A DNA stretch of 64,000 nucleotides, taken from Raillietiella orientalis (Eukaryota). A program made the position numbers and the translations under genes. Positions 4,856 to 41,912 of this stretch are shown piece after piece. The stretch's first letter is position 1, and every line of letters starts with the position of its first letter. The stretch covers positions 124,001 through 188,000 of the forward strand of contig JAYWIR010000098.1 in assembly GCA_036172245.1 (NCBI GenBank). Reading direction: 5' to 3'. The notes beneath the pieces are model-generated. The model had not been told where the DNA came from and made no database searches. It saw only the letters and a program-made list of their open reading frames with translations.

Positions 4856-4959
4856 AGTAGTTTCCTGTGCCTCTCGGCAATAGTCTCCTCGAGTCCTCCT
4901 TCTTCTAACGCGTCCGCGAGTTTTTTTTTTTTAAAAAAAAAGCCCAAACAATTTCGCCG

Positions 4960-10279: not shown

Positions 10280-10726
10280 GGACTCCCTCAGTCCAGCTGT
10301 AGCCCTGGCAGCACTTTGCTGCATTCGTGGTATAGTGGCGGCCTATAGTGATGCCGAAGATGAAGACTGCATCGTGAGGGATGTCATCGAGTATGCTTCT
10401 CGCTTCCTGCAGAGAGCTACCCGGTGGACCCATCTAGGAAGGATGAAAAAGGAACTAGAAGGCATCCTGCCAAGAATAGGCCCTCCCAGCAGTTTTCTGT
10501 GATCCCTTCCCGGCCCTCCAAACTTTTTTTTGTGGTTTGTTTTTCTCTTTTATTTTATTTTTGTGTTCTCCCTTATCCCCCTCTACTGCTGAGGAGAGCC
10601 ACACCGAGCTGCGTCCCGGTGTCCCGGAAGTTCCGGTATTGCGTGGCCGTCAGTGGGGCCTTGTACCACGTTCTGTATTGACCGTTGAAATGTTTTTAAT
10701 AAACGTCCCGGCGTATCCGGGTGGCA
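10280..10726 (+). mobile_element. 5'-truncated 3' terminus (ORF2 end plus 3' UTR) of a B-related element
   Basis: LAALCCIRGIV..., stop at 10502; 10480-10738 is nearly identical to 9352-9611. Confidence 0.85.
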
Positions 10727-10838
10727 TCGCCGAATCCCCGCTGTGGAGAGCGGACGTGCTTTTCCTGCGCTCCGCCTGCGTGGAAAGCGAGTGTTTTTTC
10801 TTCTTGAGTGATTTGTGCGTGCAAATCGTCGGTGTCCG

Positions 10839-16700: not shown

Positions 16701-17305
16701 TCAAGGTACACGTGATCGATGCTGCTTTTCATGGCCGTGTCCCCGGCCAACAAGTTGCGCGTGTTCATTTCTGCGCACAACTCGTTGACGCGGTCGTTCA
16801 GTGTATCCGGCGCACCTGAAAGCAGGCGCAGGTTGAAATCACCTGCGATCAGGTGCGCTTTGCGAACTTCTGCATCGGTCAGCCAATCGCGTCTCAGGGC
16901 AAGGTAGAATTTCCTTCTTGCCTTCGCCCTCAACGCGTTGTTTCCGCTAGGAGCGTATAGGTTGGTGACGACCAGGTCGATGGAGTCGGACCAGCTGAGA
17001 GTCAGCTGACCGACGCGACCTGCGTCATCGAACCGAACGTCCTTTATTGCGGTTTCAATGGCTGGCCGGAGCAGGAAGGCGACACCGCTTGATTTCGCGG
17101 TGCCGCAACGCCACAACAGCCGCCCACCCGAGATCCGTTCGATCTCCCGGGCTTGATCTGCGGAGATTACGTGGATCTCCTTCAGCATCACCAGGTCGAA
17201 GGATGCCAGGGTGGCGGCCACGTCACGCCTCTTGCCGTCGTCGCTTAGCCCGTTCACGTTCCAACAGGCGATCAGAAGACGACGGCGAGAGGCGATTCCC
17301 GGCAT
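13748..17305 (-). pseudogene. Element C ORF2; longest intact stretch in the window (936-codon ORF), frameshifts near 16,560 and near the C-terminus
   Basis: ORFs 16346-17305 (WNVNG, GDFN, SDH) and 13881-16691 (KAPGEDG, DLRKAFD, QGDSLSP, YADD, CVRCG..H..C). Confidence 0.93.
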
Positions 17306-18911: not shown

Positions 18912-21900
18912 TGCTGCCTAATCCTCCACCCACACCACGCACAAGCACCAACGGAAATGAAACTCAGGTGCAACGAAAAGACACGTCCGCTCGACGCTCC
19001 GGAATCTCCAGGACTGGGACCTTTTCAAGGAATCGGTCCGGGAGTTCTGCGAGCAGTTCCCTCTGCACCGCCTGCCCTCCGGATTCGGCAAGGGTCCTCG
19101 CAACCATCGGGCTTATTTACAGGCCCGTAGGTACGAGCGAACCCCTAATGTCCGTCGCCTGGCCGAGTACCGCGCCGGGGCCGAACGCCAAGCCTGGCAA
19201 TCCGGGTCCGCCAGCTTGCTGGACGACCAGGGCCGGGAATGTTCGTCCCCGGCGTCGGTACGGCATCTCGTGCGGAGTTATTATTCCTCCTTTTACGCCA
19301 GGGCGCCCCCGGATCAAGATGCCTCTCGGCTCTTGCTTCCGGATGGTGCTGCAGCAATAGGGGAGGAGGAGTCGTTAAGCCTCGATGAGCCTTTTACCAC
19401 CGGCGAAATTCTCGCCGGTATCAAAAGGCTCAAGAGGCGGAAAGCTCCAGGGGAAGACGGCTTGCCCGCGGAGTTCTATCAGAGCTCCGCGGAAGAGCTG
19501 GCACCCCTGCTGCTTCAGCTGACAAGGCTGATCCGAGACGAAGGCGATGTTCCCGCCTCGTTTCGGTCAGCCAGAGTGAGGCTCCTTCCGAAAGGAGGAG
19601 ACCTTAGAAATTTGAACAACTGTCGTCCGATCACGATTGTGAATACGGACGCCAAGTTGGTTGCCGGGCTATGGGCTTCGCGTATGGGGCAGGTGGCAGA
19701 ATCCATAATCAGCCCGGAGCAGACATATGCTGTTCCCGGGCGAAGTATGGATGCCAACCTCTTCTTCGCAAGCACATGGGTGCACCTGTAGAGAAGAGAA
19801 AAGAAAGGGATAGGGAAAGTCGGCAACCCCACATTCGGGCCGCCACCCGGGCTAGGAAGGGAACCCCGGGCGGGAAAGGGGGCCCTTGGGCTCGCAGTCG
19901 ATCTTCACAAGGCGTTCGACTGTGTAGACCAGGAACTCCTCTTGGAGCTCCTGGGTCGCATGGGCTTCCCACCCTCCCTGATTTCCTACCTGCGCTCTTG
20001 CTGGCGGTATGCGATGATTACCGTCTCTTTTAGTGGTCAAAAGGTTTATGGCGTGCCGGTGCGGCGGGGCATAAGGCAGGGGGATAGCCTCAGCCCCCTG
20101 CTCTTCAGCACCTACTTTGAGTTGGTGCTGAGAGCGTACAGGGTGACTTTGATCCCCTTGCCGTGCTGGTACCCCGGCACGCCCGCCGTAGCAGCGTACG
20201 ACGACGATCTTCTGCTCTTGTTGCCAATGTCCACCCCGTCAAAGGCGGTCGCAGACTTCTTCGATCTGCTCAGCCGCGAGACCGGACTGCAGGTTAACAG
20301 GGCGAAGACGTCGGTTGTGCCAATAGGTGCGGCGTGGGCGGAGCAGCAGGGCTGGGTTCGTCTGGGGATCTCCACGGCGAGGTGCTTCAAGTACCTTGGT
20401 GTGCCGTTGGGGGACTACTCCCCTGCGGAAGCGTGGTCCAGCTGCCTCCAAAAAGTCGAGACGGCGATCGGCCCGTTCCTGGAAGGCAAGTTTCACTTGC
20501 CGGAACGGGCCGCTTTTTGGAACGCCTTCGCGGCCCCCATCCTTCGCCCTTTGCTTTTTGTTTGCCCCTCCACTGTGGAATCGAAGAAGAGGACAAAGGA
20601 CCTCCTCCGTATTGCCCTTTGGGGCAAGGGGAGGCCCCGAGTCCCTCTGAAGTACTTGTGCGCTCCGCGTCGAGACGGCGGTCTTGGCCTCCTGACGCTG
20701 GAGCGCGTGGAGAAGCAGCTGCGGTGGCGAACCCTCGCCATCGCAGCGAAGATTTGGAGCACCCCTTGGTGCACTCCGGCCCGCCTCCTTGCCAGGCGTG
20801 TTTCCCGGTGCGATGGACTCGCGTGTTTTCTTCTGAGCCGTGGCCGGAAGATGGAAAGATGCGGCCTACTGCTCGGGCGCATGGCAACATTGACCAAGGT
20901 GAACAGCTGGATGGTTTGCTGCCCCGCCAACACCCCGCCTGGCTGGAGGAGAATATTGGAACGTGGGCAGCGGTTAACCAGTGGAGCCACGAAACCTGGA
21001 ATCGTCTCCGATGCAGCCCCTAAGCCCGCTGCACGCTGCGGAATCTTCTGGATAGTACAGCAAGATGCACGTGGGCAGAGACGACCTGCTTAGCTACGGC
21101 TCTGCCCTTCCACAGGAAGGCACTTCAGAGCAGCCGAACGCCAAGGTGGGAAGTCTCCTGCTGCATCGAGGAACGCGAGAAGTTGATCAGCGGCTGGACA
21201 ACAGGAGAACTGTACGACGCCACTACACCGAGCGTCCAGCCGCGAGGACTAAGAAGATGCGTCGAGCTGCTGGCCATCCCTATGGATGTGCTGAAGTGGC
21301 CCCCGCTTCTTCAGGAATCCAGGATCTTGCCCCTTGAGTGGAAAGAGTCGGCGTTGCTGTTGTTGCATTGGGGTTTGCCCTGCAACGCACGTCGCTCTCA
21401 CTGGACAAGAGGGGTTGTGGATCCTGCGTGTGTCAGGTGCGGAGAGCGGGAATCGCTCTCCCACCTTATTGTGGACTGTGCTGCCCTTCGTCCCCTTTGG
21501 GAACGGTTTGGGTCGATCCTCGGTCTCCCTACGGGCAGTTCCCCTAGAGACATTCTTCCCCTTCTTTTCGTGAAGGACGCCCTGCAGCCAGCCGAAGCCC
21601 TTGCAGCCTTGTGCTGCGTCCTAGGCATTGTGGCGGCATGGAGCGACACCAACAACGAAGGAGTAGGTCAACACGCGAGGGATGTCATCCCATATGCCCA
21701 ACGCTTCTTGCGGAGAGCTGCTGGATGGCCCCAACTGGGGAATATACGGATGAACCTCGAGGGCTTCCTTCAACGGATGGGCCCTCCTGTCAGCGAACAG
21801 TGATCCCTTCCCTGCCCCCCAACCTCATTTGTTTGTTTGCCTCTTGTTTTTATTTTTGTTTTTCCCCATCCCCTTTCGCTGCCGGGGAGTGCCACGCCGG

Positions 21901-22010: not shown

Positions 22011-25000
22011 ACGCATAAGCCCGGCGGAAGACGTTCCAGGGGAAACTGGTCGCAAAACTCACGGACTGAGCACTTCATTTCGTCCCAGTCCGCGAGCGTC
22101 TGAAGCTGGAATCCTCGCAGGAAGAAGCGTAGATGTTCCGCCGCTCCTGCGAGGCGCAAACAATCTCCTGGCAGGCGCCACGTTTTCAGGGGAGGGCCCT
22201 TATTGCGCGGATGTAACTCGAGCACGAGCCGTGGATGGTCGGACAGCTCTGCCTGGAGCGTTCCTCAAATTCCCACCCGCGTGCACAGGTGGTTGTCGAG
22301 GAACATGAGGTCCATGTTCCGATCTCTCCCGGCATCACCGGCCAACCAGTTGCGCGCATTCATTGCTGCGCACAACTCGTTAACCAGTTGTGCTCGACTG
22401 CTGGGCGCACCTGCCAGGAGGCGGAGATTGAAATTTATCACACGGGCACGCCGGGGCGTTTATTAATAATACTAAACTGGTCAGGGACAATGTCCTCAAC
22501 CAACAGAACGACAGAGAACATAGAAAAATTACCGGCACGCAGGCCTGGTAAACAAACCGCTCGCAGCGTGGGGGGAATGAGGGGAAACAAACAAAAATCA
22601 AAAACTAGAGGGAAGGGTAAAGGGTTTTTGGTTAGGCTCCGTACTCACGGGGATTTAAACGATGAGCACCTCGAATGTTCCGAAGGCTATGAAGACGCGG
22701 GTGTTAAAAGAAAATACAAAATTAGTTTATGGAGGGTAGGGCAATGATCACCGGGTTGGCCGCTGCTGAGGATGTGTAAACGGGCGGTGTATTGCGGCGA
22801 GATTCCTTTTTGTCTCCTCTGTCAAATGAGGCCATCTAGCGGATGCTCCTATGTTGAAGGATGCTTTGCTGATTACCTCTTGGTGCTGTCCGTTGATTAC
22901 CAACGCCTGGCGGACGGAAACTATCGCGCGTATGCAACCGATGGTTGCAATCCTTGCGCTTAGTGACAGCCCGCTCGGCGTGAAGAATCGTCGCAGCAAG
23001 TCTCTTGCGGTGTCCACGGGATGCATTAGTGCTGTTGCCAGCCTACGCCACAGTCCTTGTAGGACACCGCAGTCCAGAAGTAGGTGCGGAATCGACTCCG
23101 TCGATCCGCACCGAACGCAGTTTGCAGACGCAAGTCCCCCGGAGTCACGATGCCAACGCTCGTTGCACTGAAAACCCCAGTGAACGAAAAGCAGCACGGC
23201 TTGCTTTTAAGCAAGGGGGAGCAGCAAAGTGTCAATACACTGTGGAGGGACTACAAGTTCTTCGGGGGTGACAGCAAGTTCTTCTGCCCACCGGAGGAAC
23301 CCCTTTGCAGTAACACGAGGAGTGGCGGCGTCCGCCAACTCTCTCGTCTTCCAGGCGCCAAGGATTCTGGTTTTTCCCGCTATCGTGCAGGAAACCTCCC
23401 ATTTCGCCGGTTGGTAACTGTCGTTTCTTGCCCTGAGGGCAGACAGCGCTGCGGCAAGAGGCGTGGCAGCCAGGGTAGATAACTTCACCTCGTCCTGCAG
23501 TACTTCTTCCAAGGATCGTGGAAAAAATTGACGCAGGGGGCGAAGATCTTCAGGGCGTATTCCTTGGAACGCCGTCCAGGATTCAACAGACTCCTGTCGC
23601 CAAGCTTCAAAGTTCATTGGGCGGCAGGAGATCCACGAGTGAGCTTCCAGAAGTGCGGTCAACTGCCGCAATGGAAACCCGAAACCCCGCTTCCTGTATT
23701 GAGTGCCCGGCAAAAGCGAGAGAAATCCTCAGCTGCCGGCGCATCTCCGCAGGAGAATGCGGGCTGGCACACACAGAAGGGATGTCCATAGCTGGGCACA
23801 CAGTGCCAGCAGTCGGAACTGCACCTGCAGTCCGTTTCGCTCCATTGTTAAGATACCTAAACCAGCATCCCGACGCGGAGCTAACAAATCTTTGAGGCGG
23901 ATTCTGGATCTCGCCAGACCCCAGAGAGCGTTCCTAAGCAGGCGTTTAGCCCGCTGTTTTGCCGCATAGGGGGGGTCCAAAACAAAAAACAGGGGACGGA
24001 GGGGGGGAGCCACAAAGGTGTTCCAAATAGTCGCCCGTGCCTGCAAGGTAAACTTGCCGTTAAAGAACGGGCTGATGGCCAACTCTGCTTTCTGAAGACA
24101 GTCCGCCCACGCTTCGGCTGCGCCGAAAGCGCCCAACGGAACGCCAAGGTACTTAAAGTACCCGACCGTGGGGATCCCCAGGCGGATCAAGTCGGACTGA
24201 CCCTCCCACTACGTACCCACAGGAACGACCACGCTCTTCTTTCTGTTCACGCTCACGCCCGCTCTTCGACGAATCAGGTCAAAAAAATTCTCGACACTGG
24301 ACGCCGGGGTGGACTTGGGGAGCAGAAGAAGCAGGTCATCAGCGTAGGCGGCCACGGCAGGCGTTCCCAAGCAGGAGCTTGGCAAGTGAGACAGCGTCAG
24401 CCTGTATGCTCTTACCACCAACTCAAAGAAGATGCTGAAGAGCAACGGGCTTAAGCTGTCGCCCTGTCGGATGCCCCTACGCACGGGAATACCATACACG
24501 CGGCAGCCGCTGAAAGTAATGCAGGTTAGCGCGTGGCGCCAGCACGCGCACAAACACAGCAGGAGTTGCGCCGGGAACCCAAGGCGTTCCATAAGCTCCA
24601 AAAGCAGCTTCTGGTTTACGTAGTCGAACGCCTTGTAAAGATCGACCGCGACCGCCAAGGCACCTGGCGTTTCCTCCTGCCGTTGGCGCCTGTTCTTCTT
24701 GCCTGCGGCAGTGACTTTCGCAGCAGACTGGCTTTGCTGCGCCACAACTTCCTGCAGCTGCATCCATGTACGCGCGAAAAGGATGTTCGGCTCCATGGAT
24801 CGTCCCGGAACCGCGTAGGTTTGTTCCGGGCTCACCACAGATTCCGCGATACTTCCTAACCGCGCTACCCACAGCTTGAAAAACAACTTGACGTCCGAGT
24901 TCACCAAGGTGATCGGACGCCAGTTGTTAAGTTGACGCAAGTCTCCGCCTTTCGGCAGGAGACGCACCTTCGCTGAGCGGAAGGAATCCGGGACATTCCC

Positions 25001-28000
25001 GGATTCACTCATCAGCGTCGCGAGTTTCAGCATCAAGGGAATGAGCTCCACTGCAAAGCACTGATAAAACTCTGCAGGGAGCCCATCCTCGCCTGGCGCC
25101 TTTCGTCTCTTCAGCCCAGCGATTGCGGACGAAAATTCATCCGCCGTGAAGGGCTCGTTGGGACGTTCGCGTTCCTCCTCGCCGACAACACGAGCATCCT
25201 GAGACAGGAGTATCTCAGAAAGAATATTCTCCGTCGGGGATTCCGCATACAGCAAGGAGTAATAGCGTCTCACAATGGGGCGTACTTCGGCTGGGGCCGA
25301 ACATTCCTGGCCCTTGTCGTCCAACAGGCATGCTGCTCCGGACTGCCACACCTGGCGCTCGGCCCTCGCCTTGTACTCTGCAAGACGCCCGACATCGGCG
25401 CGTTTCGAAAACGTGCGGGCCTGCAGAAAGTCTCTACTGTTGGCCACGCCCTCTCCGAAGCCGCGTGGAAGCCGGTGCAAGGGGAATTGGCAGCAGAACT
25501 CGCGGACAGATCTTTTGAGATCGTCCCAGTCCGCAAGTTCTTGAATGGCAAAGCCTCGGAGGTATCCACGTAGATGCTCCGCAGCCTCCGGTTGGCTAAG
25601 CCAATGCGCCTGCATGCTCCAGTTTTGCAACGGAGGCCCTCTACCTGGCGGAAGGATCTCAAACTCCAGCCTGTGGTGGTCAGAAAGCCTAGTCAACAAT
25701 CTTCCTCTCCTACCCACACGCGAATGCAGGTTTTCATCGAGGAAAACGTGATCGAGCGATCTTTATATTCCAGGTTCGCTGACCATCAAGTGTGCGGCGT
25801 GCACGGACGCGCACATCTCGATGGGCAGCGCGCGCTCCCTCGGGCGGCTCCAATCGTCGGAGAGCAGGCGGACGTTGAAGTCCCCAGCGACGAGGTGCGC
25901 CACTTGGAAACCGGAGTTGTTAAGCCAGTGACTCTGCACCTCACCAAAGAAAGCTACTCTTTCTTCGAGGTAGCGAGAGCCACTCGGCGCGTAGACGTTC
26001 GTAACGACGAGTTCGATGGACTCGGACCACTTGATGACAAGCTGGCCTTTCCGTCCGTCGTCGTCGAAACGAACACTACGCACCGCTTCCGCAATTTTTC
26101 CTCTTACGAGGAACGCGACGCCGCACGTGTGTGCGCCGCCGCACCGCCAATGTAGCGTTCCGCCTGCGCGCTCCGCGATTTCGGCTGCCTGCTCGTCGGA
26201 GATTACGTGAATCTTCTGCAGGAGCGCGAGGTCGAAGGGGCGCAAGTCGTTGGCTACTAATCGCCTCTTCTCGTCGTTCTGTACTCCGTTCACGTTCCAA
26301 CACGGTACGGACAGACGACGAGAAGACGCGATTCCATGCATTACTGCTGGGAAGGTGGCGGCTTTTTGCTCGCTTTATCCGGCGAGCAGACGGCGAGCAG
26401 CACGACTGGCTGGAGGGGACGGTCGCCACCGTCTTCTGTCGTGCTGCATGCATGTAATGCCTCCACGCCAGGCTTAACCCCGTCGGGTTTCGTGGAGACT
26501 TCGCGTGGCTTCGCGGCTAGGGTTGCCTGGCTGCCTACTTTTGATCGGCGCGCACACGCTTTCGAACGAGTTGTGCTCGTCTTGGTGATCGGAACGGCAT
26601 CCATTTCGGAGTCCGAACGGCGCATGTTCGATCGGGTATCGGCCTTCCGCGAAGTAGTGACAGGTTCTGCTGGATTGACAGCTGTCCTCTTGTCTTTTTC
26701 CGTCTGCAGAGCATCGCTTTTGGTGACGGCTGCTTTCCCGGCGCGCGCGTTTTCAGCGTGCTCACGCGCAATTGCACGAGGGACCTTTGCTGAAGTGTTC
26801 TTTACTTCAATACGGTTCCTCACTTCGCGTGGCGCCGTAAATAGAGATTGTGCTCCATTGCCATGTTTGAAGCCATCCGCGTCTTTGGACGGGAGCACTT
26901 TCGATGGCTCCGACACGCTTTTCATGGACGCTGCCTTCGGTAGGGCCTTAAATCTTTTCGTTGGCATGGCATCCGCGCCAGTCAAGAGCTTGCTCTCCGA
27001 CTGCGACGGCGTGAGATTTTTCTCCGCTTTCGCGGTCTTGGATCGCGACGCGGATTTTTTTTTTGCCGAGTTTCGTGGTCGACACGGCACAACCCTTCTT
27101 ACCCGATTTGGGCTTCTGAGTTACTGCAGGAGGTGAAGGAATGGATCTGACGGTACTGGAAGTGTCCTTACCGCCGTTGTCCATTGACGTCCCCGCCGGT
27201 TGCTCGAACTCCGAGAGAGCCATGCGTGCTTGGGAAGGACAGCTATTGCGTCTAGGGGGACTTATCATTGCCTTGGATTCCCCGAACCCTTTCTTTTGCG
27301 GCTCCCCTGCCGCGAGAGAGGCCGCGCAGGGCTCCGCGTGCGAGGTTTCCTGCTGCTTTGGGGCGACATTCCGCCTCGCGTTTTTTCGGAATTTCTGCCG
27401 TGGGGTCTCCAGGTTTTTCGCAGATGTTTTCTTTTTATCCGCGCTTTGTTTTTTAAGATGGAGCTCCGCGGCTGCCTTTTTTCTCAAAAGATCCGGGCAG
27501 TTTTTCAATTGGTGCCCGGATAGTTTGCAATAACGGCATTTTCCAGAGGGGCATTTATCCAAACAATGCCCCTCCTTCCCGCATTGCTCGCACGTTCTTA
27601 CTTTGCCCACGAACCACAGGTGAACGACCGTGTCTTTCACCTGTAGTTTGGTGGGCAGCAGAAGGCGGTCCGGCATTGTAAGCCGGACTCCAGCGACTCC
27701 GCTGTGTATGGACGGGAAGTCCTTGAGGTTGCTACGCACCCTCCACAGCGCATGGACCGTGGCGAATTTCGCCAACGCGTGCCGAATATCAATATCGGAG
27801 ATTTCCGACTCGATGTCGAAAATCTCCGCCACAAATGAGTCGTCCATGGCTGCCGGGAAGACCTTCTTGCCACGGATCGACAACGGGGTGCGCAGCAAGC
27901 GTTGCACAAGTGCAGCGTCTTTGCAACGCACCTTGAAATAGCCCATGTCTTTTACGGGCATAATGGCAAGAAGCTCCTCCTCCCGCACGCCAACACGGGT

Positions 28001-29376
28001 CAGTTCATCGTTGAACTGATTCCCGTCGCGCGCAGAAAGAAAACCACTCACCTTATATCGGAGAGCAGGTCTATAGCCTTCGGCTACGTATGCTTGCAAC
28101 TCCGTCTCGTCGAGTGGCTTCCCTTTGACGGCTGCTGTGGCAGCAGCGTCAGCAAAACTCCTCTCCATTGTCGAGATAGACGAAGTGCAGGCGGCCGTCG
28201 GTTCCGCGATAGCAGATCCGGATTCTGTTCCTACAACTTCAGTAGCTTCAAGTTCGGTCGCCATCGTCGTCAAAATGTACGACGCCAAGATGAAGCGGAT
28301 GAAAGCACGGAGACGAGAGCGGAGAAAAGCACGTCCGCACTCGATTGAAATCTCCCGCAATGAGGTGCGCCCTTCGCACGCCTGCTTCGGTCAACCAGTC
28401 TCGCCGCAAGGTTTCGAAGAACACAGTGCGTTCCTCGGCCCTGTGGCTGCTCACCAGAGCGTACAGGTTCGTGACTACGAGGTCGATCGAGTCCGAACAC
28501 TTTAACACAAGCTGCCCAACTCGACCTTCTTCGTCGAACCGTGCACTGCGCAGTGAGTTGTCGACGGTTGGCTTTAGCAGAAAGGCCACTCCGCAGGAGT
28601 TGTCCGTTCCGTTCCTCCACAGTAGCCGCTTTCCCGCGATTCTTTCGATTTCCTGGACATCTCCCGGTCGGAGAACGTGCGTCTCTTGCAGGAGCACCAG
28701 GTCGAAGTCTCGCAGTATGGCGGCTACATCTCGCCTCTTTCCGCCGTCGCGCAACCCGTTGACGTTCCAACAGGTGATGCGCAAGCGGCGGCAGGAGGCG
28801 AGCCCACGCATTGGTGTATTTATGGTAGGGTGGAGGCGGCCTCCTCCCTTTCGGGAGACGGCTCGTTGGCGGCCGTGACGACGGTCGGCTGCTCACACGG
28901 GAGCACGTAGTCAGCAGCGACTTCCATTGCGCTGGCTTCCGAGGCGCGGACGGGAGAAGGCTCGCGTGACGCGACGCACATTGCCTCCCCCTCCGTGCCC
29001 GAGGACATGGGCTCCTCCACTTGGGAGGAGGCGACACGTCTCGGGCATCCGGCCTTCTTGCCAGCTTTCCTCTTCGGCACGGCTGCGGAAGTAGAGCAAC
29101 CGGCTTCAGCGTCGGACCCGGAAGATTCCGGGCCCTTCGCCGTCGCCGGTCGTCTCAAGGCCTTCTTTTCGGCCTTGGCAGGCCGCCTGAACATGGCTGC
29201 CAGCTCTTCCGCGGCCTGCTCGAAGGTCGCGTCTTCGATTCGCGCCACCTCCTCGCTTTCCGCACCGACACTCGGCGCAGGCGCAATGGAAGCGGCTTCA
29301 TCGATCGGCGCGCAGACGTCCTTGGCTGGCAATGCCGAAGCGGCATTGTCGTCAGCTGATGGTGACGTCACTGCGT
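22011..29376 (-). mobile_element. Element J: ORF1 end plus APE/linker; host of D, bounded by B and F insertions
   Basis: ORFs 28820-29395 and 28248-28811 (..HLIAGDFN); resumes at 22434 (NLRLL..FPLERLPPGL). Confidence 0.88.
22435..28343 (-). mobile_element. Element D: full-length (~5.9 kb) with 8-bp TSD
   Basis: ATTGAAAT at 22427-22434 and 28344-28351; ORF1 26341-28264 and ORF2 22748-26341, both disrupted. Confidence 0.95.
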
Positions 29377-32314
29377 TTTTACCCGGATATGCCAAGGCAT
29401 TTATTTAAAAAAAAAAAATAAAAATACATGTAATTTTCGGGTGAAGTACCTGATGGTTCAGCACAAAGCAGCCTGCTTCTTGCCGATTCTAAACCGGCGA
29501 GGTCCTTCCAACGCTCGGGAATGGGAAGAAAAAAACAAAACAAACAAAAAAATGTAAAAATTCGAGAGAGTACTTCTGTTTGGGAAGGGGGGGGCATGAA
29601 GGGAATCACATTGCTCGCTTAAAGGTCCTCTAAATCCTGTTCAGGATCTTCACAAGCTGCGTCCGTTGTGCACCCAGGTGTCTCCACCTGCAAATGTTTC
29701 TCACAAAAAGGCGAGTCCAATGTACAGCATTGCCGCAAGCTTGGAGCTTTCTTCTTGTCGCGTTCCAAGCCGACACGCTCCCTCTAATGCAGCAAAGAAC
29801 TGATACAGAAGCGCGAGGGGACAAGGCATCACGCAAGAAGAGTCGCCTAAAAACGTCTTTAGGGCCGCCTCCGCGAATGTCCAGGATCGCCGTAAGGCGA
29901 TCCCATAAAGGGCGGATGGCACTGCACTCAATTTGAAGGTGGGGGAATGTCCCTTTCTCCCCTCACTCGTCGCACTGGGAATCCACAGCCCCCCGAGTGG
30001 AGTGAGAGAGGCGTGCCTTGAAGGGTAAACCCCAATGTATCACGAGCAGCGCCACCTCCTACCATTTCAGGGGGAGGTAGTCACTATTCCAAGACGCTGG
30101 GGGCCACTTCATCTCCTCCGCAGATAGTCCGAGTAGCTCTCCTTAGCGTCGGATTCCGTTGGGCGGGACACTGGGCGTCGCAGCGTCCGCTAGCTGCCGA
30201 GATGTCCACGCTTTAATCTTTTGTGTCCTACTTTCGATGGTGCAGGACATGGTCCATTTCCCCTGCTCGCTACTGTCCCTGGCATTCACAAGGAAGGGCA
30301 GCACTAAGGCGCAATGGGTTATCAGGGCCCACAGGAGGTGATCGTGGGACTGCACGATCTCCTGCAGCGTCCAGCGGGCGTGCCTTTTCAGGCAAGTGTT
30401 TTTTGTGCCCGCCGGAACGTGAAGCTTTTCCCAAGCGGAGACTGTCTCGTGCAATCATGCCGAGTAGTTCCCTGGGAGGCAGGAGATCCAGGCGTTCTCC
30501 CGTACCACAACGTCCATGCGACGCAGGAGAAAGCCGCCTTATGCTTCTCTGCGGTCGCGCGCCAGCAGAAACGACAAAAGTCCGCCGAATCCGCAGGCTC
30601 GTTGGGCCAGGAGGCGTGCTGGAACGCATCAAGGCGTGTCCCACAATTTGGCCGCGAGGGCGAGAGTCCTGAATTGTAGTTGGAGTTCCATGCGCTCCAG
30701 CGTAAGTAGGCCAAGTCCACCGTCCTTACGTGGAGCTCACAAGTCTTTGAGCCTCATATGGGACCTTCCTTTGCCCCAAAGGACTGTCCACAGGAGGCTT
30801 GCTGCTCGTTTTCAAATAAAATAAGGGGCGGGGCAAACAAAAAGTAGGGGGCGAAGAAGGAAGGCCGCAAACGCGTTCCACACCTCGGCCCGTTCCTGCA
30901 AGTAGAACTTGCTTTCTTGGAACGCAACGATCGCCAACGCTGCGTTTTGAAGACGGTCGGACCAGTCTTCTGCTGCGCAGAAGTCCCCCAACGCCACGCC
31001 AAGGTACCTGAAGCACCTGCCCGTGGGGATCCCCAAGCAGATCCATTCCGACCTTCCAGCCCACGCCGAGCCAGTACAAGTTATGGACGACTTCGCCCTG
31101 ATCACCTCCAGGCCCGTCCCGCGGCGCAGCAACTCGAAGAAGTCCTCGAGCGCACTCGCCGGGGTAGACCCGGGAAGCAGCAGCAGAAGATCGTCTGCAT
31201 AGGCCGACACAGCAGGCGTGCCGGGACACGAGCTCGGCAGGGTTGCCAGAGTTACCCTGTATGCCCTCAGCACCAACTCAAAGTAGATGCTGAAGAGCAA
31301 GGGGCTCAGGCTGTCACCCTGCCGCATGCCGCGTCGCACTGGCACGCCGTACACGTGCCGGCAGCTGAAACCAATATTGATATACGCGTTGCGCCAGCAG
31401 GAGCGCAGGTAAGACCGGAGCACGGACGGGAAACCCAAGCGTTCCAGGAGCTCCAGAAGGAGATCCTGGTCGACGCAGTTGAATGCTTTGTGCGAATCGA
31501 CCGCGACGGCAAAGGCTCCCGCCGAGTCCGTCCTTTCTTCTGCATGATCTTCTTGGTCAGAGGGGAGCGCAAGGCTCCCTTGACCATCCTGAGCAACGCG
31601 TTGTCGCAACTGCCAACATGAGCTGGCGAGGAGCAGGTTGGCCTCCATGGTTCGTCCAAAAACAGTTCAGGTCTGCTCGAGACTCACCAAGGAAGCGGCC
31701 ACCCGCCCCAAACGCTCAGCCCACAATTTGGCATACAACTTTGCGTCCGCATTCACTACTGTGATAAAACGCCAGTTGCTAATGTTGCGTAAGTCTCCTA
31801 ACTTTGGCAGGAGACGTACCTTTGCTGACCGGAACGAGGCGGAAACTTCACCGTGTTCGCGCATCAGCGTACTGAACCTGAGCACCACGAGGGCGAAGTG
31901 CCGCGAAGTGTTTGTAAAACTCCGCATGCAGGCCGTCCTCCCCTGGTGCCTTCCTGTTCTTCAGCCTGTTGATGGCGGAGACGACTTCCACCATCGAGAA
32001 CGGTTCTGCCAACCTGGAACGATCCTCCTCCTTGAGCGCGGGGAGGCCATCCGGCAGCAGGCGCTGCGCGAAATGGCGCTTCGGTGTTAGTGGCGCGTAC
32101 AAGGAGGAATAGAACTCCCGCACGATGCGGCTTACCTGAGCTGGGCTGCAGCGTTCTTGGCCCTGATGGTCCAGCAAGCAGGCCGAGCCTGAATGCCAGG
32201 CCTTCCTCTCATACTCAGCCTTGAATTCTGCCAGGCGACGGACGTCGAGACGCCTGGAATAAGGGCGGGACTGAAGGTATGCCCGCTCGTTCCTGACTCC
32301 CTTCGCGGAATCCC
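29377..32314 (-). mobile_element. Element F: ORF2 from linker to 3' end, cut at GF(R)EG by B'
   Basis: ORFs 31848-32477, 31667-31927, 30812-31648 (YADD), 30143-30454, 29630-29836; 3' AATAAAATGCCTTGGCATATCCGGGTAAAA. Confidence 0.9.
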
Positions 32315-34835
32315 CGCTGTAAAGAGAGGACGTGCTTTCCCTGCGCTCCAACTGCGTGGCAAGGCGAGTGTTTTTTTCTTCAGTGATTTGTGCGTGGACA
32401 TCGTCGGTGTCCGATGGCAGCGTTGACAGAGGACACCGCGATGGAAGTAGGCGTGATGGAGGCTTGTTCGTCTCCACAGCCTACTGGATCAGGGGCATCC
32501 GCCCCGGAATCGTCCCCGGCGACGACGAGGTCATGGAGCGCTATTGTGGCCGCGCCTAGCGTGGAACCCATGGCCGAGATGGAAGCCTACAAGAAAGCGG
32601 GGTATAAACCCTCGCTACTCTACAAGGAAGGCAACCTTTTCGATGGGCGAACTGCACGCGCCTTTACGAAGGCGCTGCAGGACGCCAATATTTTTGAAAA
32701 AGATCTCGACGGCCTCTGCGTCCTTAGCAGCGGGCAGCGGGTCGACGTGGTATGCAAGGATATCACCTTGGCCCGACACCTGATCACCGACCCGCTGATC
32801 GTTGATGGTCGGAAGATCTTGCCGATAACGATGGACCGCTCGGTGGTGGTCCATCTCACTGGGATCTCCAGTCGAATGACTAGGTCAGCGGTTCGAGAAC
32901 AGCTACAAAAGAACGGAGAAAAGCACGCGTTGTGGCCGAAGTCCACGATTTTCCAAGGCTACATTAGCCTTTTCGGAGGTCAAGCTGCGACGCGTATCAC
33001 AGTAAAAGAAAGTGGTGCGCTTCCCCACAATCTGGAGGTTTGCCAAGAAGCGGTGGACCTCTGGTACGTGGGGAAACGCCAATTTTGTGGCTACTGCAAT
33101 GCAGTAGGGCATCTACGAAAAAGGTGCTCGAACATTGTGTGCCACCTATGCGGCGAAAAGGGTCACGTTCGGCGCGTTTTCCACAATTGAACCACCCCGG
33201 TGCCCCCTGCCGCCAAAAAGGCGCAGGGAAAACGTGGAAAGCTGGTAGAAAGACCAGCTCGCGAAAATGGCCGTTCCCAACTGCCAGCCTCGTTTCCTCC
33301 CGTGCAGACGTCAAAGGAAAGAGCTCCCGTGAACGCGGAAATGGAGGAGGGTTGACAGCTGGTTCGGGCCAGAAAAAAAAAAAAAAAGAAATTAATGCCA
33401 GAAGAAAATTCGGAGAAGAAAACTGCCGGCAACAAGGAAAAAGCCGCGCACCTTTCAGAATAAAAACAACTCCACGAATGCTCGGTGGCACTGGAACGCT
33501 TAGCCGTTCCTGACGAGTCCGCCCGCGGCAATGTTCGCGGAACAGCTGATGCGGACGGATGAATACTCGCGTGGACGAGCCCATTCTACGTTTAGAGGGT
33601 GAGAAGACGCGAGACTCGCGCGCCGACAGCCAGGACGCCGCGCTCGATAAAGTCGCGGAGGAGCCCGCGGCAAAGTTCGCCGTCAGCGGTGACGCCGCGC
33701 TCGATAAGGTCGTAGAGCAGCTGGCGGCAACGGTCGCCAGTGGCGTAGACGCGGCCTTCGAGAAAGAGGCGGAGGAGCTCGCAGCAACACTCGCCGAGCG
33801 CGAAACCCCGTCGCGCAAGGGCGTACGCAGGTCGGCTCCTACGAAGAAGGCCCCCGCAGGTGAGTGCGACCTGGGGGCCGGAAGCGGAACCTCCTCCTCG
33901 GAGGCACCCCCCAGGAAGTCGGGACGCAAATCCCAGAAACCCAGGTGGCGCCTTCCCTCCACCAGCGAGGAGGAGATGCCGGAAGGAAGCGGCAGCGAGG
34001 AATCCCGGAGGGGGAATACCCACGCCCGGAAGCCGTCGAGTCGGCCACCCCATGGAGGAGCGTGAGCAGGGGGGTGAAGTCCTCCCTGCAGTCGCGAAAC
34101 CTGAGCAGCCCGAACCCATGGAGGAGAGCGAACAGATAGGAGCGACTTCAACTGCGGGTGATCTGGCAGACGCACCAGCACCGATGGAGGAGGAGAAACA
34201 GGTGCCTTCAGTACCTGTTCCCTCTCTTCCTCAACCTAGCGTCCAGCCCAGCAGGTGGCGGACGCCGCATCGCCGTTTTCCCAGGAATAACACCTAACTC
34301 GCCGGTCGCCGTCGGATTCGCGCCGCCTGTTGGAACGTCAACGGGCTGCGCAACGACGGTAACAGGCGAGATACGGCCGACACCCTGTGTGAGCTCGAAC
34401 TGGCGCTGCTGCAGGAGATCCACGTGATCACCGCGGCAGACGCCCAGGAGATGCAGACGATCGCGGAAGGTCGGTGGTATTGGCGATGCGACCTCCGCAA
34501 CACCTGCGGGGTCGCGTTCTTCGTGAAGCAGGCCATCGACGCTGCCGTAAAGGGAGTGCGGTTTGATGACGACCGTCGGATCGGTCTGCTGATTCTCAGC
34601 TGGTCCGACTCGATCGACCTAATCGTCACAAACGTGTATGGCCCCAGCGGCAAACAGGGGTACGGCGACCGCCCCAGGCTGCTGCAAACCCTGAAACGCG
34701 ACTGGCTGGAGGATACCAATGTGCGAAAGGCTCACCTGATAGCGGGAGATTTCAATTGAGTGCGGACGTGTTTTTCTTCGCTCTCGCCTCCGTGCTTTCA
34801 TCCGCTTCATCTTGGCGTCGTACATTTTGACGACG

Positions 34836-36755
34836 ATGTCGACCCAACCCGAAACTACTGAAGTTGGAGGGACAGCATCCGGATCTGCAATCGCGGAACC
34901 GACGGCCGCCTCCACTTCGTCTTTCTCGCCAATAGAGAGGAGTTTTGCTAACGTTGCTGCCACAGCAGCCGTCAAAGGGAAACCACTCGACGAGTCGGAG
35001 TTGCGGGCATACGTAGCCCAAGGCTATAGACCTGCTCTCCGATATAAGGTGAGTGGCTTTCTTTCTGCGCGCGACGGAAATCAGTTCAACGATGAACTGA
35101 CCCGTGTTGGCATGCGGGAGGATGACCTTCTCGCCATTATGCCCGTGAAAGACATGGGCTATTTCAAGGTGCGTTGCAAAGACGCTGCACTTGTGCAACG
35201 CTTGCTGCGCACCCCGTTGTCGATCCGTGGCCAGAAGGTCTTCCCGGCCGCCATGGACGACTCATTTGTGGCGGAGATTTTCGACATCGAGTCGGAAATC
35301 TTTGATATATATATTCGGAACGCGTTGGTGAAATTCGCCACGGTCCATGCGCTGTGGAGGATGCGTAGCAACCTCAAGGACTTCCCGTCCATACATAGCG
35401 GAGTCGCTGCAGTCCGGCTTACAATGCCGGACCGCCGTCTGCTGCCCAGGAAACTACAGGTGAAAGACACGGTCGTTCACCTGTGGTTCGTGGGCAAAGA
35501 AAGAACGTGCGAGCAATGCGGGAAGGAGGGGCATTGTTTGGATAAATGCCCCTCTGGAAAATGCCGTTATTGCAAACTATCCGGGCACCAATTAAAAAAT
35601 TGCCCGGATCATTTGCCAAAAAAGGCAGCCGCGGAGCTCCATGTTAGAAAACAAAGCGCGGATAAAAAGAAAAAATGGGCGAAAAACCTGGAGACCCCAC
35701 GGCAGAAATTCCGAAAAATCGCGAGGCGGAATGTCGCATCAAAGCAGCAGGAAACCTCGCACGCGAAGCCCTGCGCGCCCCCTCTCGCGGCAGGGAAGCC
35801 GCAAAAGAAAGGGTGCGGGGAATCAAAGGCAATGGTAAGTCCCCCTAGGCGCAATAGCTGTCCTTCCCAAGCACGCCCGGCTCTTTCGGAGTTCCAGCAA
35901 CCGGCGGGGACGTCAATGGGCAACGGCGGTAAGGACACTTCCCGTACCGTCAGATCCATTCCTTCACCTCCTGCAGTGGCTGAGAAGCCCAAATCGGGTA
36001 AGAAAGGTTGTGCCGTTTCGACTTCGAAAGTCAGCCAAGAAGAATCCGCGTCGCGATCCAACACCGCGAAAGCGGAGAAAAATCTCACGCCGTCGCAATC
36101 GGAGAGCAAGCTCTCGACTGGCGCGGATGCCATGCCATCGAAGGGATTAAAAGCCCTTCCGAAGGCAGCGTCCATGACGAGCGTGTCGAAGCCATCCAAA
36201 GTGCTCCCGTCCAAAGACGCGGATGGCTTCAAAGATGGCAATGGAGCACAATCTCCATTTACGGCGCCACGCGAAGTGAGGAACCGTAATGAAGTAAAGA
36301 AGACTTCAGCAAAGCTCCCTCGTGCAACTGCGCGTGAGCACGCTGAAAACGCGCGCGCCGGGAAAGCAGCCGTCACCAAAAGCGATGCTCTGGTGACGGA
36401 AAACAAAAACAGGACAGCTGTCTATCCAGCAGAACCGGTCACTGCTTCGCGGAAGGCCGAATCCCCATCAAACATACGCCGGTCGGACTCCTAAATGGAT
36501 GCCGTTCTGATCACCGAGACGAGGACAACTCGTTCAAAAGCGTGTGCGCGCCGATCAAATGTAGGCAGCCAGGCAACGCTCGCCGCGAAGCAACGCGAAG
36601 TCTCCACGAAACCCGACGGGGTTCAGCCTGGCGTGGAGGCATTACATACATGCAGCACGACAGAGGACGGTGGCGACCGTCCCCTCCAGCCAGTCGTGCT
36701 GCTCGCCGTCTGCTTGCCGGATAAAGCGAGCAAAAAGTCGCCACCTTCCCAGTAG
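34836..36755 (+). pseudogene. Element D' ORF1 (2 CCHC knuckles), in-frame stop at 36492-36494
   Basis: ORF 34812-36494 (CEQCGKEGHCLDKC, CRYCKLSGHQLKNC) plus 36495-36755. Confidence 0.9.
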
Positions 36756-36757
36756 TA

Positions 36758-39700
36758 ATGCGGGAAATCGCGTCTTCTCCTCTTTTGTCCGTAACGTGTT
36801 GGAACGGGAACGGACTACAGAACGACGAGAAGAGGCGATTAGTCGCCAACGCCCTGCGCCTCTTCGACCTCGCGCTCCTGCAGGAGATTCACGTAATCTC
36901 CGACGAGCAGGCAGCCGAAATCGAGGAGCGCGCAGGCGGAACGCTACATTGGCGGTGCGGCGGCGCACACACGTGCGGCGTCGCGTTCCTCGTAAGAGGA
37001 AAAATGGCGAAAGCGGTGCGTAGTGTTCGTTTCGATGACGAGGGACGGATAGGCCAGCTTGTCATCAAGTGGTCCGAGTCCATCGATCTCGTCGTTACGA
37101 ACGTCTACGCGCCGAGTGGCTCTCGCTACCTCGAAGAAAGAGTAGCCTTCTTTGGTGAGGTGCAGAGCCACTGGCTCAACAACTCCGGTTTCCAAGTGGC
37201 GCACCTCGTCGCTGGGGACTTCAACGTCCGCCTGCTCTCCGACGATTGGAACCGCCCGAGGGAACGCGCGCTGCCCATCGAGATGTGCGCGTCCGTGCAC
37301 GCCGCCAACTTGATGGTTTGCGAACCTGGAATGGAAAGATCGCTCGATCACCTTTTCCTCGATGAAAACCTGCATACGCGTGTGGGTAGGAGAGGAAGAT
37401 TGTTGACTAGGCTTTCTGAGCACCACAGGTTGGAGTTTGAGATCCATCCGCCAGGCAGGGGGCCTCCGTTGCAAAACTGGAGGATGCAGGCGGATTCGCT
37501 TAGCCAACCGGAGGCTGCGGAGCTTCTACGTGGATACCTCCGAGGCTTTGCCATTCAAGAACTTGCGGACTGGGACGATCTCAAAAGATCTGTCCACGAG
37601 TTCTGCTGCCAATTCCCCTTGCCCTGGCTTCCACGCGGTTTCGGAGAGGGCGTGGCCAACAGTAGAGACCTTCTACAGGGCTGCACGTTTTCGAGACGCC
37701 CGGGTCTCGGGCGTCTTGCAGATTTCAAGGAGAGGGCCGAGCGCCAGGTCTGGCAGTCCGTAGCAGCATGCCTGTTGGACGATAAGGGCCAGGAATGTTC
37801 GGCCCCAGCCGAAGTACGCCGCATTGTGAGACAGTACTACTTTTCGCTCTACGCGGAATTCCCGACGGAGGATATTCTTTCTGAGATACTCCTGTCTTAG
37901 GGTGCTCGTGTTGTCGGCGAGGAGGAACGCGAACGTCTCAACGAGCCCTTCACGGCGGATGAATTTTCGTTTGCAATCGCTGGGCTGAAGAGACGAAAGG
38001 CGCCAGGCGAGGATGGGCTCCCTGCAGAGTTTTATCAGTGCTTTGCAGTGGAGCTCATTCCATTGATGCTGAAACTCGCGACGCTGATGAGTGAATCCGG
38101 GAATGTCCCGGATTCCTTCCGCTCAGCGAAGGTGCGTCTCCTGCCGAAAGGCGGAGACTTGCGTCAACTTGACAACTGGCGTCCGATCACCTTGGTGAAC
38201 TCAAACGTCAAGTTGTTTTCCAAGCTGTGGGTCGCGCAATGAGGAAGTATCGCGGAATCTGTGGTGAGCCGGGAACAAACCTACGCGGTTTCGGGACGAT
38301 CCATGGAGGCGAACATCCTTTTCCGGCGTACATGGATGCAGCTGCAGGAAGTTGTGGCGCAGCAAAGCAGGCTGCTGCGAAAGTCACTGCCGCAGGCAAA
38401 AAGAACAGGCGCCGACGGCAGGAGGGAACGCCAGGTGCCTTGGCGGTCGCGGTCGATCTCCACAAGGCGTTCGACTGCGTAAACCAAAAGCTGCTTTTGG
38501 AGCTTATGGAACGCCTTGGGTTCCCGGCGCAACTCCTGCTGTATTTGCGCGCGTGCTGGCGCCACGCGCTAACCTGCATCACTTTTAGCGGCTGCCGCGT
38601 GTATGGTATTCCCGTTCGTAGGGGCATCCGACAGGGCGACAGCTTAAGCCCGTTGCTCTTCAGCATCTTCTTTGAGTTGGTGCTAAGAGCATACAGGCTG
38701 ACGCTGTCTCACTTGCCAAGCTCCTGCCCGGGAACGCCTGCCGTGGCCGCCTACGCTGATGACCTGCTTCTTCTGCTCCCCATGTCCACCCCGGCGTCCA
38801 GTGTCGAGGATTTCTTCGACCTGATTCGTCGGGGAGCGGGCATGAGCGTGAACAGAGAGAAGAGCGTGGTCGTTCCTGTGGGTACGTCGTGGGAGGGGCA
38901 GTCCGACTGGATCCGCATGGGGATCCTTACGGGCGGGTACTTTAAGTACCTTGGCGTTCCGTTGGGCGCTTTCGGCGCAGCCGAAGCGTGGGCGGACTGT
39001 CTTCAGAAAGCAGAGTTGGCGATCAGCCCGTTCTTTAACGGCAAGTTTACCTTGCAGGAACGGGCGACTATTTGGAACACCTTTGTGGCCCCCCTCCTCC
39101 GTCCCCTGTTTTTTGTTTTGGACCCCCCCTATGCGGCAAAACAGCGGGCTAAACGCCTTCTCAGGAACGCTCTCTGGGGTCCGGCGAGATCCAGGATCCG
39201 CCTCAAAGATTTGTTAGCTCCGCGTCGGGATGCTGGTTTGGGTATCTTGACAATGGAGCGAATCGGACTGCAGGTGCAGTTCCGACTGCTGGCACTGTGT
39301 GCCCAGCTATGGACATCCCCCCTGTGTGTGCCAGCCCGCATTCTCCTGCGGAGATGCGCCGGCAGCGGAGGATTTCTCTCGCTTTTGCCGGGCACTCAAT
39401 ACAGGAAGCGGGGTTTCGGGTTTCCATTGCGGCAGTTGACCGCACTTCTGGAAGCTCACTCGTGGATCTCCTGCCGCCCAATGAACTTTGAAGCTTGGCG
39501 GCAGGAGTCTGTTGAATCCTGGGCGGCGTTCCAAGGAATACGCCCTGAAGATCTTCGATCCTGCGTCAATTTTTTCCACGATCCTTGGAAAAAGTACTGC
39601 AGGACGAGGTGAAGTTTTCTACCCTGGCTGCCACGCCTCTTGCCGCAGCGCTGTCTGTTCTCAGGGCAAGAAACGACAGTTACCAACCGGCGAGGTGGGA

Positions 39701-40349
39701 GGTTTCCTGCACGATAGCGGGAAAAACCAAAATCCTTGGCGCCTGGAAGACGAGTGAGATGGCGGACGCCGCTACTCCTCGTGTTACTGCAAAGGGACTC
39801 CTCCGGTGGGCAGAAGAACTTGCTGTCACCCCCGAAGAACTTGTAGTCCCTCCACAGTGTATTGACAGTTCGCTGCTCCCCCTTGCTTGGAAACAAGCCG
39901 TGCTGCTTTTCGTTCACTGGGGTTTTAAGTGCAACGAGCGTTGGCATCGTGACTCCGGGGGACTTGCGTCTGCGAACTGCGTTCGGTGCGGATCGACGGA
40001 GTCGATTCCGCACCTACTTCCGGACTGCGGTGTCCTACATGGACTGTGGCGTAGGCTGGCAACAGCATTTATGCATCCCGTGGACACCGCAAGAGACTTG
40101 CTGCGACGATTCTTCACGCAGAGCGGGCTGTCACGCAGCGCAAGGATTGCAACCATCGGTTGCATACGCGCGATAGTTTCCGTCCGCCAGGCGCTAGAAA
40201 TCAACGGACAGCACCAAGAGGTAATCAGCAAAGCATCCTTTTACATGAAAGCATCCGCTAGATGGCCTCATTTGACAGAGAAGACAAAAAGGAATCTCGC
40301 CGCAATACACCGCCGGTTTACACACCCTCAGCAACGGCCAACCCGTTGA
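36758..40349 (+). pseudogene. Element D' ORF2, disrupted
   Basis: ORFs 36758-37900, 38048-38242, 38227-39612 (DLHKAFD, YADD), 39585-40349. Confidence 0.92.
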
Positions 40350-41912
40350 TCATTGTCCTGCCCTCCATAAACTAATTTTGTATTTTCTTTTTACATCCGC
40401 GTCCCTATAGGCTCCGGAAGATTTGAGGTGCTCATCGTTTGAATCCCCGTGAGTACGGAGCCTAACCAAAAACCCTTCACCCTTCTTTCCAGTTTTTGAT
40501 TTTTGTTTGTTTCCCCTTATTCCCCCCACGCTGCGAGCGGTTTGTTTACCAGGCCTGCGTGCCGGTAATTTTTCTATGTTCTTTGTCGTTCTGTTGGTTG
40601 GAGACATTGTCCCTGACCAGTTTATTATTATTAATAAACGCCCCGGCGTGAACGGGTGATAAATTTCAATCTCCGCCTGCTAACAGGTGAGCCGGAAACA
40701 CAAGTGAACGCGATGAACGAGTTCTGCGCCGCCATGCGTGCGCGCAACTTGTTTGCGGTGAGAGGGGAATGGTCCGCAGCATCGACCACGTCTTACTCGA
40801 CGCTGACTTGTGTTCACGTGTCGGCAAACGGGGGAGGGTTGCGTCGACGTTGTCGGACCATTCCCGGCTAATTTTCGAGATGCGGCCTCGCGACAAAGGA
40901 CAGTTATCCAGGGATTGGCGTCTGCCGCGGGACTGGACGCGACCCTCAGGTGCAAAGGAACACCTTCGGGAATACCTGAGAGGCGTCACGTTACTGAATC
41001 TCCAGGCCTGGGGGTTCTTTAAGAAATCGCTCCGCGAGTTCTGTGAGCAGTTCCCCCTGGATGGCCTGCCCCCTGGATTCCGCGAGGGTGCTCGCAACCA
41101 TCGGGCCTATTTACAGGCTCGTAGGTACGAGAGAGCCGCTTATGTCCGTCGCCTGGCCGAGTTCCGGGCCGGGGCCGAACGCCAAGCCTGGCATTCCGGG
41201 TTGGCCAGCTTGCTGGTCGACCAGGGCCGGGAATATCCGTCCCCGGCGTCGGTACGGCATCTCGTGCGAAGTGTTTATTGTTCCCTCCACGCCAGTGAGC
41301 CCCCGGATCGGAACGCCTCTCCGCGCTATCTTCCGGATGGCGCCCCGGCAATAGGGGAGGAGGAGATGAAAAGCCTCGACGAGCCTTTTACCACCGGCGA
41401 AATTCTCGCCGGTATCAAAGGCTCAAGAGGCGTAAAGCTCCAGGGGAAGACGGCTTGCCCGCGGAGTTCTTTTAGAGCTTCGCGGAAGAGTTGGAACCCC
41501 TGCTGCTTGAGTTGATCAGGCTGATCCGAGACGGAGGCGATGTTCCCGCCTCGTTTCGGTCAGCCAGAGTGAGGCTCCTTCCGAAAGGGGGAGACCTCAG
41601 GAATTTACAGAACTGGCGTCCGATCACAATCGTGAATACGGACGCCAAGTTGATAGCAGGGCTATGGGCTTCGCGTCTGGGGCAGGTGGCAGAATCCGTA
41701 ATTAGCCCGGAGCAGACTTATGCTGTTCCCGGGAGAAGTATGGATGCCAACCCCTTCTTCGCAAGCACATGGGTGCACCTGCAGAGAAGAGAAAAGAAAG
41801 GGATAGGGAAAGTCGGCAACCCCACATTGGGGCCGTCGGCCTGGCTGGAAAGGGACCCCCGGGCAAGGTAGGGGGCCCCAGCGCTCGCAATCGACCTCCA
41901 CAAGGCGTTCGA

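Follow-up and report, generated by a model that had tools for sequence, protein, structure and literature searches.

Target-specific long interspersed nuclear elements (LINEs) carrying an endonuclease of the apurinic/apyrimidinic endonuclease (APE) type are described as established in the Tx1 and R1 clades (PMC4640811), and the targets reported for LINEs comprise ribosomal DNA (rDNA), telomeres, small nuclear RNA (snRNA) genes, microsatellites and one DNA transposon. Tx1L of Xenopus laevis, a member of the Tx1 clade (described as an animal clade), inserts into the DNA transposon Tx1D (PMC4494074). In vitro, the Tx1L endonuclease is reported to nick almost only its own target, the specificity of the element lying in this enzyme (PMC1950540); sequence-specific APE endonucleases are described for both Tx1L and R1Bm (PMC1950540; PMC1919474), and in the R1-clade type the enzyme is described as cleaving the two strands of one specific site (PMC1919474; PMC4640811). 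Zepp-type centromeric clusters are described as 'targeting existing copies' only.

The stretch analyzed here (hereafter the window) consists of 64,000 nucleotides from Raillietiella orientalis (assembly GCA_036172245.1, contig JAYWIR010000098.1, positions 124,001 to 188,000, forward strand), and is numbered from its first letter. It contains two copies, D and D', of a non-LTR (long terminal repeat) retrotransposon, inserted in the endonuclease codons of two related LINEs, J and B'. D is probably a target-specific LINE of the L1 superfamily, homing into the endonuclease active-site codons of related LINEs, with GGAGATTTCAATCTCC as its target.

Two insertions at one site in diverged hosts

Both inserts lie between GCGGGAG/ATTTCAAT and ATTTCAAT/CTCCGCC, are flanked by an 8-bp direct repeat, ATTTCAAT, and are in sense orientation relative to open reading frame 2 (ORF2) of the host. 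Within the GDFN codons of the host, the duplication takes in the last two bases of the Asp codon, the Phe codon and the whole Asn codon (G/AT TTC AAT/CTC), and the host frames run into the insert as ..TEAGVRRAHLIAGDFN in J and ..EDTNVRKAHLIAGDFN in B'. The two copies, their flanks and the empty target found in B, an uninterrupted paralogue of B', are the following:

22435-28343, minus strand: D, full-length non-LTR retrotransposon copy, 5909 bp
34757-40662, plus strand: D', second full-length non-LTR retrotransposon copy, 5906 bp
28344-28351, minus strand: 5' copy of the duplication ATTTCAAT flanking D, after GCGGGAG of host J (28352-28358)
22427-22434, minus strand: 3' copy of the duplication ATTTCAAT flanking D, before CTCCGCC of host J
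34749-34756, plus strand: 5' copy of the duplication ATTTCAAT flanking D', in an exact match to GCGGGAGATTTCAAT
40663-40670, plus strand: 3' copy of the duplication ATTTCAAT flanking D', in an exact match to ATTTCAATCTCCGCC
28344-28826, minus strand: host J, 5' part, endonuclease domain (ORF2 amino acids ~7-167), ending in ..AHLIAGDFN
22011-22434, minus strand: host J, continuation (ORF2 amino acids ~165-306), truncated at 22010/22011 by the 3' end of B
32315-34756, plus strand: host B', 5' part, with 5' untranslated region (UTR), ORF1 and endonuclease up to GDFN, 92% identical to B 10739-13176
40663-41912, plus strand: host B', continuation after D' (ORF2 amino acids ~168-584), then interrupted by element E'
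13162-13183, plus strand: empty target GCGGGAGATTTCAATCTCCGCC in B, in which both 15-mers described below overlap

The whole window was scanned with the two junction 15-mers. GCGGGAGATTTCAAT has exact matches at 13162 (plus), 28344-28358 (minus) and 34742 (plus), ATTTCAATCTCCGCC at 13169 (plus), 22420-22434 (minus) and 40663 (plus), with ~0.2 matches expected by chance for either. Because paralogue B retains the empty site, both the boundaries of the inserts and the 8-bp duplication are fixed. The initial annotation had placed D in J and D' in B', both sense, with ATTTCAAT duplicated between GCGGGAG and CTCCGCC, and the exact junction matches and the empty site in B bear this out.

D and D' align end to end at 94.2-94.3% identity (346 differences, short flanks counted). 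For the J and B' flanks, identity is 66.3% across 480 nt 5' of the insert and 64.3% across 420 nt 3' of it; read in 40-nt bins (82, 62, 55... on the 5' side, 72, 70, 72... on the 3' side), it does not reach that of the inserts near the junction. These figures bear on the view that D inserted once, and that a block made of D and its flanks was then carried to the second host by segmental duplication or gene conversion. The blastn alignment of D with D' does run 36 nt and 100 nt into the flanks, an extension due to the homology of the hosts; the flanks remain at 66.3% and 64.3% against 94.2% for the inserts, and stay below the insert level next to the junction. Moreover, the flanks of B' match those of the empty paralogue B at 92-93% on both sides, right up to the junction, and the 22-mer is native in B; the sequence around the insert therefore belongs to B' itself, and was not brought in by conversion. 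Copying of a block is accordingly extremely improbable, and the claim of the initial annotation that the hosts clearly differ elsewhere, so that no block was duplicated, holds when D-D' and J-B' divergence are measured: the similarity of the flanks (~65%) falls well below that of the inserts. J and B share a run of 23 identical nt at the site, within surroundings of ~65% identity, as expected if targets are selected by sequence, though so few sites do not allow formal testing. As nucleotide, 8-bp duplication, orientation and full-length 5' end are all shared in two diverged hosts, chance is not credible. As judged from sequence, the two D insertions are independent.

The core of the target is a pseudo-palindrome, GGAGAT-TTCA-ATCTCC, able to form a hairpin. 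The 22-mer is self-complementary at 16 of 22 positions, a level reached by 162 of the 63,978 22-mers of the window (0.25%), and the 16-mer palindrome has no occurrence in the window other than the B site and, once reconstructed, the two occupied ones. The target would measure ~16-23 bp, and encode the A-G-D-F-N-L-R active-site block of related LINE endonucleases.

A motif scan gave 11 hits, namely eight GDFN sites of the LINE group, one GDLN of a distant LINE near 2.9 kb, and two spurious hits. Two of the eight GDFN sites belong to the D copies themselves, which leaves six host sites. The exact 22-mer is present in three of these (B, J and B'), two of which are occupied; the variant sites of H, E and E' are all unoccupied (0/3). 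Changes at the variant sites are synonymous or conservative (GGG, GGT or GGC for GGA; AAC for AAT; GTC, CTG or GTT for CTC). The sites diverging from the target are:

10009-10030, minus strand: variant GDFN site of host H, GCAGGGGATTTCAACGTCCGTC, unoccupied
16825-16846, minus strand: variant GDFN site of element E, GCAGGTGATTTCAACCTGCGCC, unoccupied
45229-45250, minus strand: variant GDFN site of element E', GCAGGCGATTTCAACGTTCGCC, unoccupied
37211-37232, plus strand: GDFN site of D' itself, GCTGGGGACTTCAACGTCCGCC, different from the target, unoccupied and without hairpin; the same sequence is present in D at 25888-25867

It may be argued that D only loosely favours a short sequence, for example AAT^CTCC, and that its copies in the window are a biased sample of a family mostly dispersed elsewhere. 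Full examination covers two copies, and some target-specific lineages are described as weakly specific, as Utopia in reptiles (PMC4640811). Yet the 7-mer AATCTCC occurs 29 times in the window, and a preference for it would not account for the presence of both inserts at the 22-mer. Additional evidence comes from a public sequencing run (X1, Logan contigs), which contains 34% of the sampled words and was aligned on 33700-41700, junctions being assessed from 17 of 128 loose ends listed. A 3755-nt contig covers 34728-38481 with 139 differences from D', and extends 29 nt into the same 5' flank; it corresponds to neither window copy, as D shows 239 differences over the same span. A 1040-nt contig (39642-40681) has 45 differences (62 for D), and extends 19 nt into the same 3' flank. 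One more contig joins 34748 to 40663 with 8 shared (ambiguous) letters, and represents an empty site. Two other runs, X2 and X3, contain next to nothing of the stretch, the few short matches being unrelated AT-rich contigs. The X1 contigs that reach the ends of D continue into the same flanks, and a loose preference is unlikely. The same contigs weakly suggest a third D copy at the same target; a diverged strain with an orthologous copy of the D' locus would explain them equally well.

Both copies in the window share one site, one orientation and one duplication, as target-specific LINEs do. Under the model of target-primed reverse transcription, the D endonuclease would nick the bottom strand inside the Asp codon (5'-GAAAT^CTCC), the freed 3'-OH would prime reverse transcription from the end of the D RNA (...GGGTGATAA), and the top strand would be nicked 8 bp away, after the Asn codon (5'-TCAAT^CTCC). 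Staggered nicks of this kind would produce both the 8-bp ATTTCAAT duplication and the precise, full-length 5' junction. The two nicks would each read AAT^CTCC, and fall between the same two rungs of the GGAGAT-TTCA-ATCTCC stem; since the target is a pseudo-palindrome, one recognition specificity could serve both strands. Insertion would split the catalytic Asp/Asn block, inactivating that host copy. D should not cut itself, because its own GDFN codons are spelt differently, and hosts with AAC for AAT, or GTC, CTG or GTT for CTC, should escape. The sequence-specific nick site that the initial annotation had proposed for D is supported by the 22-mer site shared in diverged hosts, the nick being placed from the duplication.

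Several observations weigh against homing of D into GDFN codons. The positions of the nicks are deduced from the duplication alone. No microhomology between the D termini and the target was seen by direct reading, which removes targeting by RNA annealing, and would leave the endonuclease as the sole determinant. Of the three exact targets, the one in B is empty. D and D' are both decayed, so activity cannot be claimed. The X1 contigs may derive from a D' orthologue of a diverged strain, and not from an independent third insertion. Finally, two full copies were examined and no further D was found in three collections; D copies at unrelated sites are possible.

Coding content and affinities of D

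D and D' both start with YGAGTGCGGACG and both finish with ..GTGATAA. The first base is C in D and T in D', a difference that falls within a CpG. ORF1 of D is interrupted by a frameshift and stops, and ORF2 of D (26374-22748, minus strand) keeps its frame with four in-frame stops. ORF2 of D' has one in-frame stop and two frameshifts. The coding features of D' are:

34836-36494, plus strand: ORF1 of D', open, with two CCHC zinc knuckles (CEQCGKEGHC.. and CRYCKLSGHQLKNC)
36800-37399, plus strand: endonuclease domain of D' ORF2, PF03372 (Exo_endo_phos), E 9.4e-10, residues 26-225
38437-38958, plus strand: reverse transcriptase (RT) core of D' ORF2, PF00078 (RVT_1), E 2.5e-15, with a YADD motif

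A CX2CX8HX4C motif follows the RT at the C-terminus of D' ORF2. Both hallmarks of APE-type LINEs, an N-terminal APE-like endonuclease and an RT downstream of it, are found in ORF2. A fusion protein of host and D was considered and discarded: D ORF1 lies in another frame, and a stop codon closes the host frame immediately on entering D' and 31 codons into D.

AATAAA lies ~22 nt before the 3' end of the D RNA. D carries no poly-A tail, and no direct or inverted repeat joins its own two ends, the sole end-to-end pair (I3) being host sequence. The same type of 3' terminus, made up by AATAAACG and ~20 nt after it with a final A, is shared by nine elements of the window. A conserved 3'-terminal RNA hairpin is not supported, as RNAalifold run on the nine 3' ends gives four pairs and zero compensatory changes, and no Rfam family matches in the window.

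All six solved-structure matches of D ORF2 are to human L1 ORF2p or L1-EN (E 1e-4). The GDFN of D aligns to G144-D145-F146-N147 of human L1 ORF2p, and both the D145A and the D145A/N147A double mutants are reported as catalytic nulls (PMC1950540), in line with the initial view that GDFN holds a catalytic Asp. For the sibling element E, the relatives with a name in databases are L1-like proteins of plants, with zf-RVT, and an RT of a fish (23-30% identity). The best protein match is a metagenome ORF (60-69% identity), and the Atlas protein look-up returned generic RT clusters only. By ORF2 similarity, a weak signal, D would belong to the L1 superfamily. Scans of metagenome, genome and viral contig collections with the D ORF1 protein found no relative. 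Four metagenome loci (L001-L004) containing an exact 22-mer from the D 5' UTR were rejected as chance matches, because none has blastn similarity to D.

The surrounding LINE nest and the GDFN hairpin

Related LINEs nested in one another make up the region between ~6 and 56 kb, with a GC content of 54-63%, against 40-44% at 56-62 kb. The segment at 56400-62600 (GC 40-44%, CpG observed/expected 0.89) has no long ORF and no LINE similarity, and may mark where the LINE cluster ends. CpG depletion and telomere repeats were looked for, and none were found. At the opposite end, 1-5000 (minus strand) contains a more distant LINE of lower GC content (49%), whose GDLN endonuclease motif lies at 2970-2959, its RT ORF at 887-1873 and its CCHC ORF1 at 3958-4500.

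Other families of the nest, too, are found repeatedly at set positions in their hosts. B-type elements (3' tail GGGTGGCA, 5' end CGCTGT..) are found in antisense orientation at host ORF2 amino acid ~307, in the LPxGF(G/R)EG codons, with a 12-nt target or duplication, TCGC[CG]GAATCCC. The junctions are C1/H at 9599/9600, B/J at 22010/22011, F/B' at 32303-32314, and a tandem C2-12mer-B at 10726-10738; the position recurs in three different hosts (H, J and F), and once in tandem. B-type elements look like a second site-specific family. A 262-bp piece made up by the B-type 3' UTR and the 12-nt target is present twice with 92% identity, at 9350-9611 by host H and at 10479-10738 by the 5' end of B.

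The 3' ends of E' (41913, minus strand) and of the B' 3' part (49614) both lie antisense, directly after host amino acid 583, at the RT motif DL(H/R)K(A/T)FD. Their tails are GGTGAAGA and GGTGAAAA, and their flanks TCGAACGCCTTGTGGAGGTCG and TCGAATGTTTTGCGCAAGTCG, respectively. Insertion of E' in B' at amino acid 583 is marked by a 14-bp duplication, CACAAGGCGTTCGA, and the corresponding empty site is found in B at 19906-19919. The related element E occupies B at a different position:

13512-19001, minus strand: E, full length, with a 939-amino-acid open ORF2 stretch, inserted in B at ORF2 amino acid 280

The insertion of E generated a 17-bp duplication, ACGCTCCGGAATCTCCA, and its empty site is found in B' near 40988-41004.

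B' looks chimeric. Its 5' end is 92% B-like and the region at 47480-48295 is 88% B-like, while the 3' tail and junction (up to 49614) are of the E' type; its flanks correspond to different host positions, amino acid 307 of F and amino acid 583 of K. This suggests that B' is a chimera formed by recombination between nested copies.

Comparison of insert and flank identity clearly supports independence only for D/D' (94.3% vs. 67.4%) and C1/C2 (91.3% vs. 53.4%). For C1/B (66.1% vs. 68.7%) and E'/B'3 (65.7% vs. 56.7%) an ancient composite is possible.

B, J, E and E' each have an inverted repeat of ~45 nt with the GDFN codons at its apex, conserved at the following positions:

B 13141-13203; E ~16805-16867; E' ~45209-45271; and the homologous site of J: conserved inverted repeat

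The hairpin folds at -17.3 to -19.6 kcal/mol (DNA parameters), with z-scores of -4.1 to -5.8 relative to shuffled sequences. 12-15 of 16 positions pair, compared with 3-9 in slid registers, and at least four pairs are kept between families by compensatory changes on both sides. At the site of D itself the inverted repeat is absent, and the 6 of 16 pairs found are at background level. The hairpin may present the target as a cruciform, or be an RNA element of the host.

Such a fold in a dense LINE-in-LINE nest fits also with a different explanation, in which D has no real specificity: all LINEs of the group would be drawn to the cluster, for example by chromatin, and the hairpin-forming GDFN region would act as a structural hotspot for any of them. 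The apex position of GDFN in strong inverted repeats of four elements is in keeping with this. However, E and E' have the hairpin with a different apex sequence and are unoccupied, and within E or B the hairpin ranks only ~7th among local folds. In the window nest only D is found at GDFN; B-type elements, E and E' use other host positions, and this family-specific choice of sites argues against a generic structural hotspot, which we regard as quite unlikely.

Homing of D into GDFN codons may be one case of a wider pattern, proposed here tentatively. Sibling L1-like LINE families may form a guild whose members home into each other and so build the nest, every family having its own conserved ORF2 motif as target: GDFN in sense for D, LPxGF(G/R)EG in antisense for B-type elements, and DL(H/R)K(A/T)FD in antisense orientation for E'-type elements. 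Targets would lie in or beside conserved hairpins, synonymous codon changes would let hosts escape, and the motif of the invader itself would be spelt differently, in an intragenomic arms race.

Comparison with known systems

As described for Tx1L, D is an APE-type LINE with a defined target inside another transposable element. Unlike that of Tx1L, which is a non-autonomous DNA transposon, the target of D lies in the codons for the endonuclease active site of related LINEs. D also resembles R1Bm, TRAS and SART of the R1 clade, and other LINEs of rDNA, telomeres and snRNA genes, in the precise junctions and the fixed short duplication, as these are described. Targeting of a multicopy sequence provides a safe haven; unlike the targets of R1Bm, TRAS and SART, the multicopy target of D is a selfish element family, which is destroyed at its catalytic motif. 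A search of the open-access literature, supplements and primary Zepp papers being outside its scope, found no description of a D-like insertion at the endonuclease GDFN codons of related LINEs.

The window resembles also the arrays of Zepp and ZeppL in green algae, described as nested L1-type LINEs inserted in existing copies, with a local GC peak (PMC3446292, PMC8226300). Zepp arrays are described as made up mostly by 5'-truncated 3' ends; here C1, C2 and G are truncated, and D, D', E and E' are full length. Unlike Zepp as described, the target is precise to the nucleotide, and several diverged families have each their own fixed host position. The window elements carry AATAAA near the 3' end, whereas green algae are known to use UGUAA as polyadenylation signal.

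If homing of D is real, it would provide a mechanism at the nucleotide level for the growth of nested LINE clusters, such as the Zepp-type centromeric ones. It would also represent parasitism, and possibly an arms race, between retrotransposon families, the site of the invader being common to diverged hosts and hard to change. A compact pseudo-palindromic site of 16-22 bp and its APE endonuclease would make a test case for the gain of specificity in L1-type enzymes, a question that bears on tools for targeted integration.

Homing endonuclease genes, inteins, and group I and group II introns insert at the most conserved stretch coding for an active site, which is shared by diverged hosts and slow to escape. 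The choice of site by D would be analogous to theirs, while the mechanism of mobility is entirely different.

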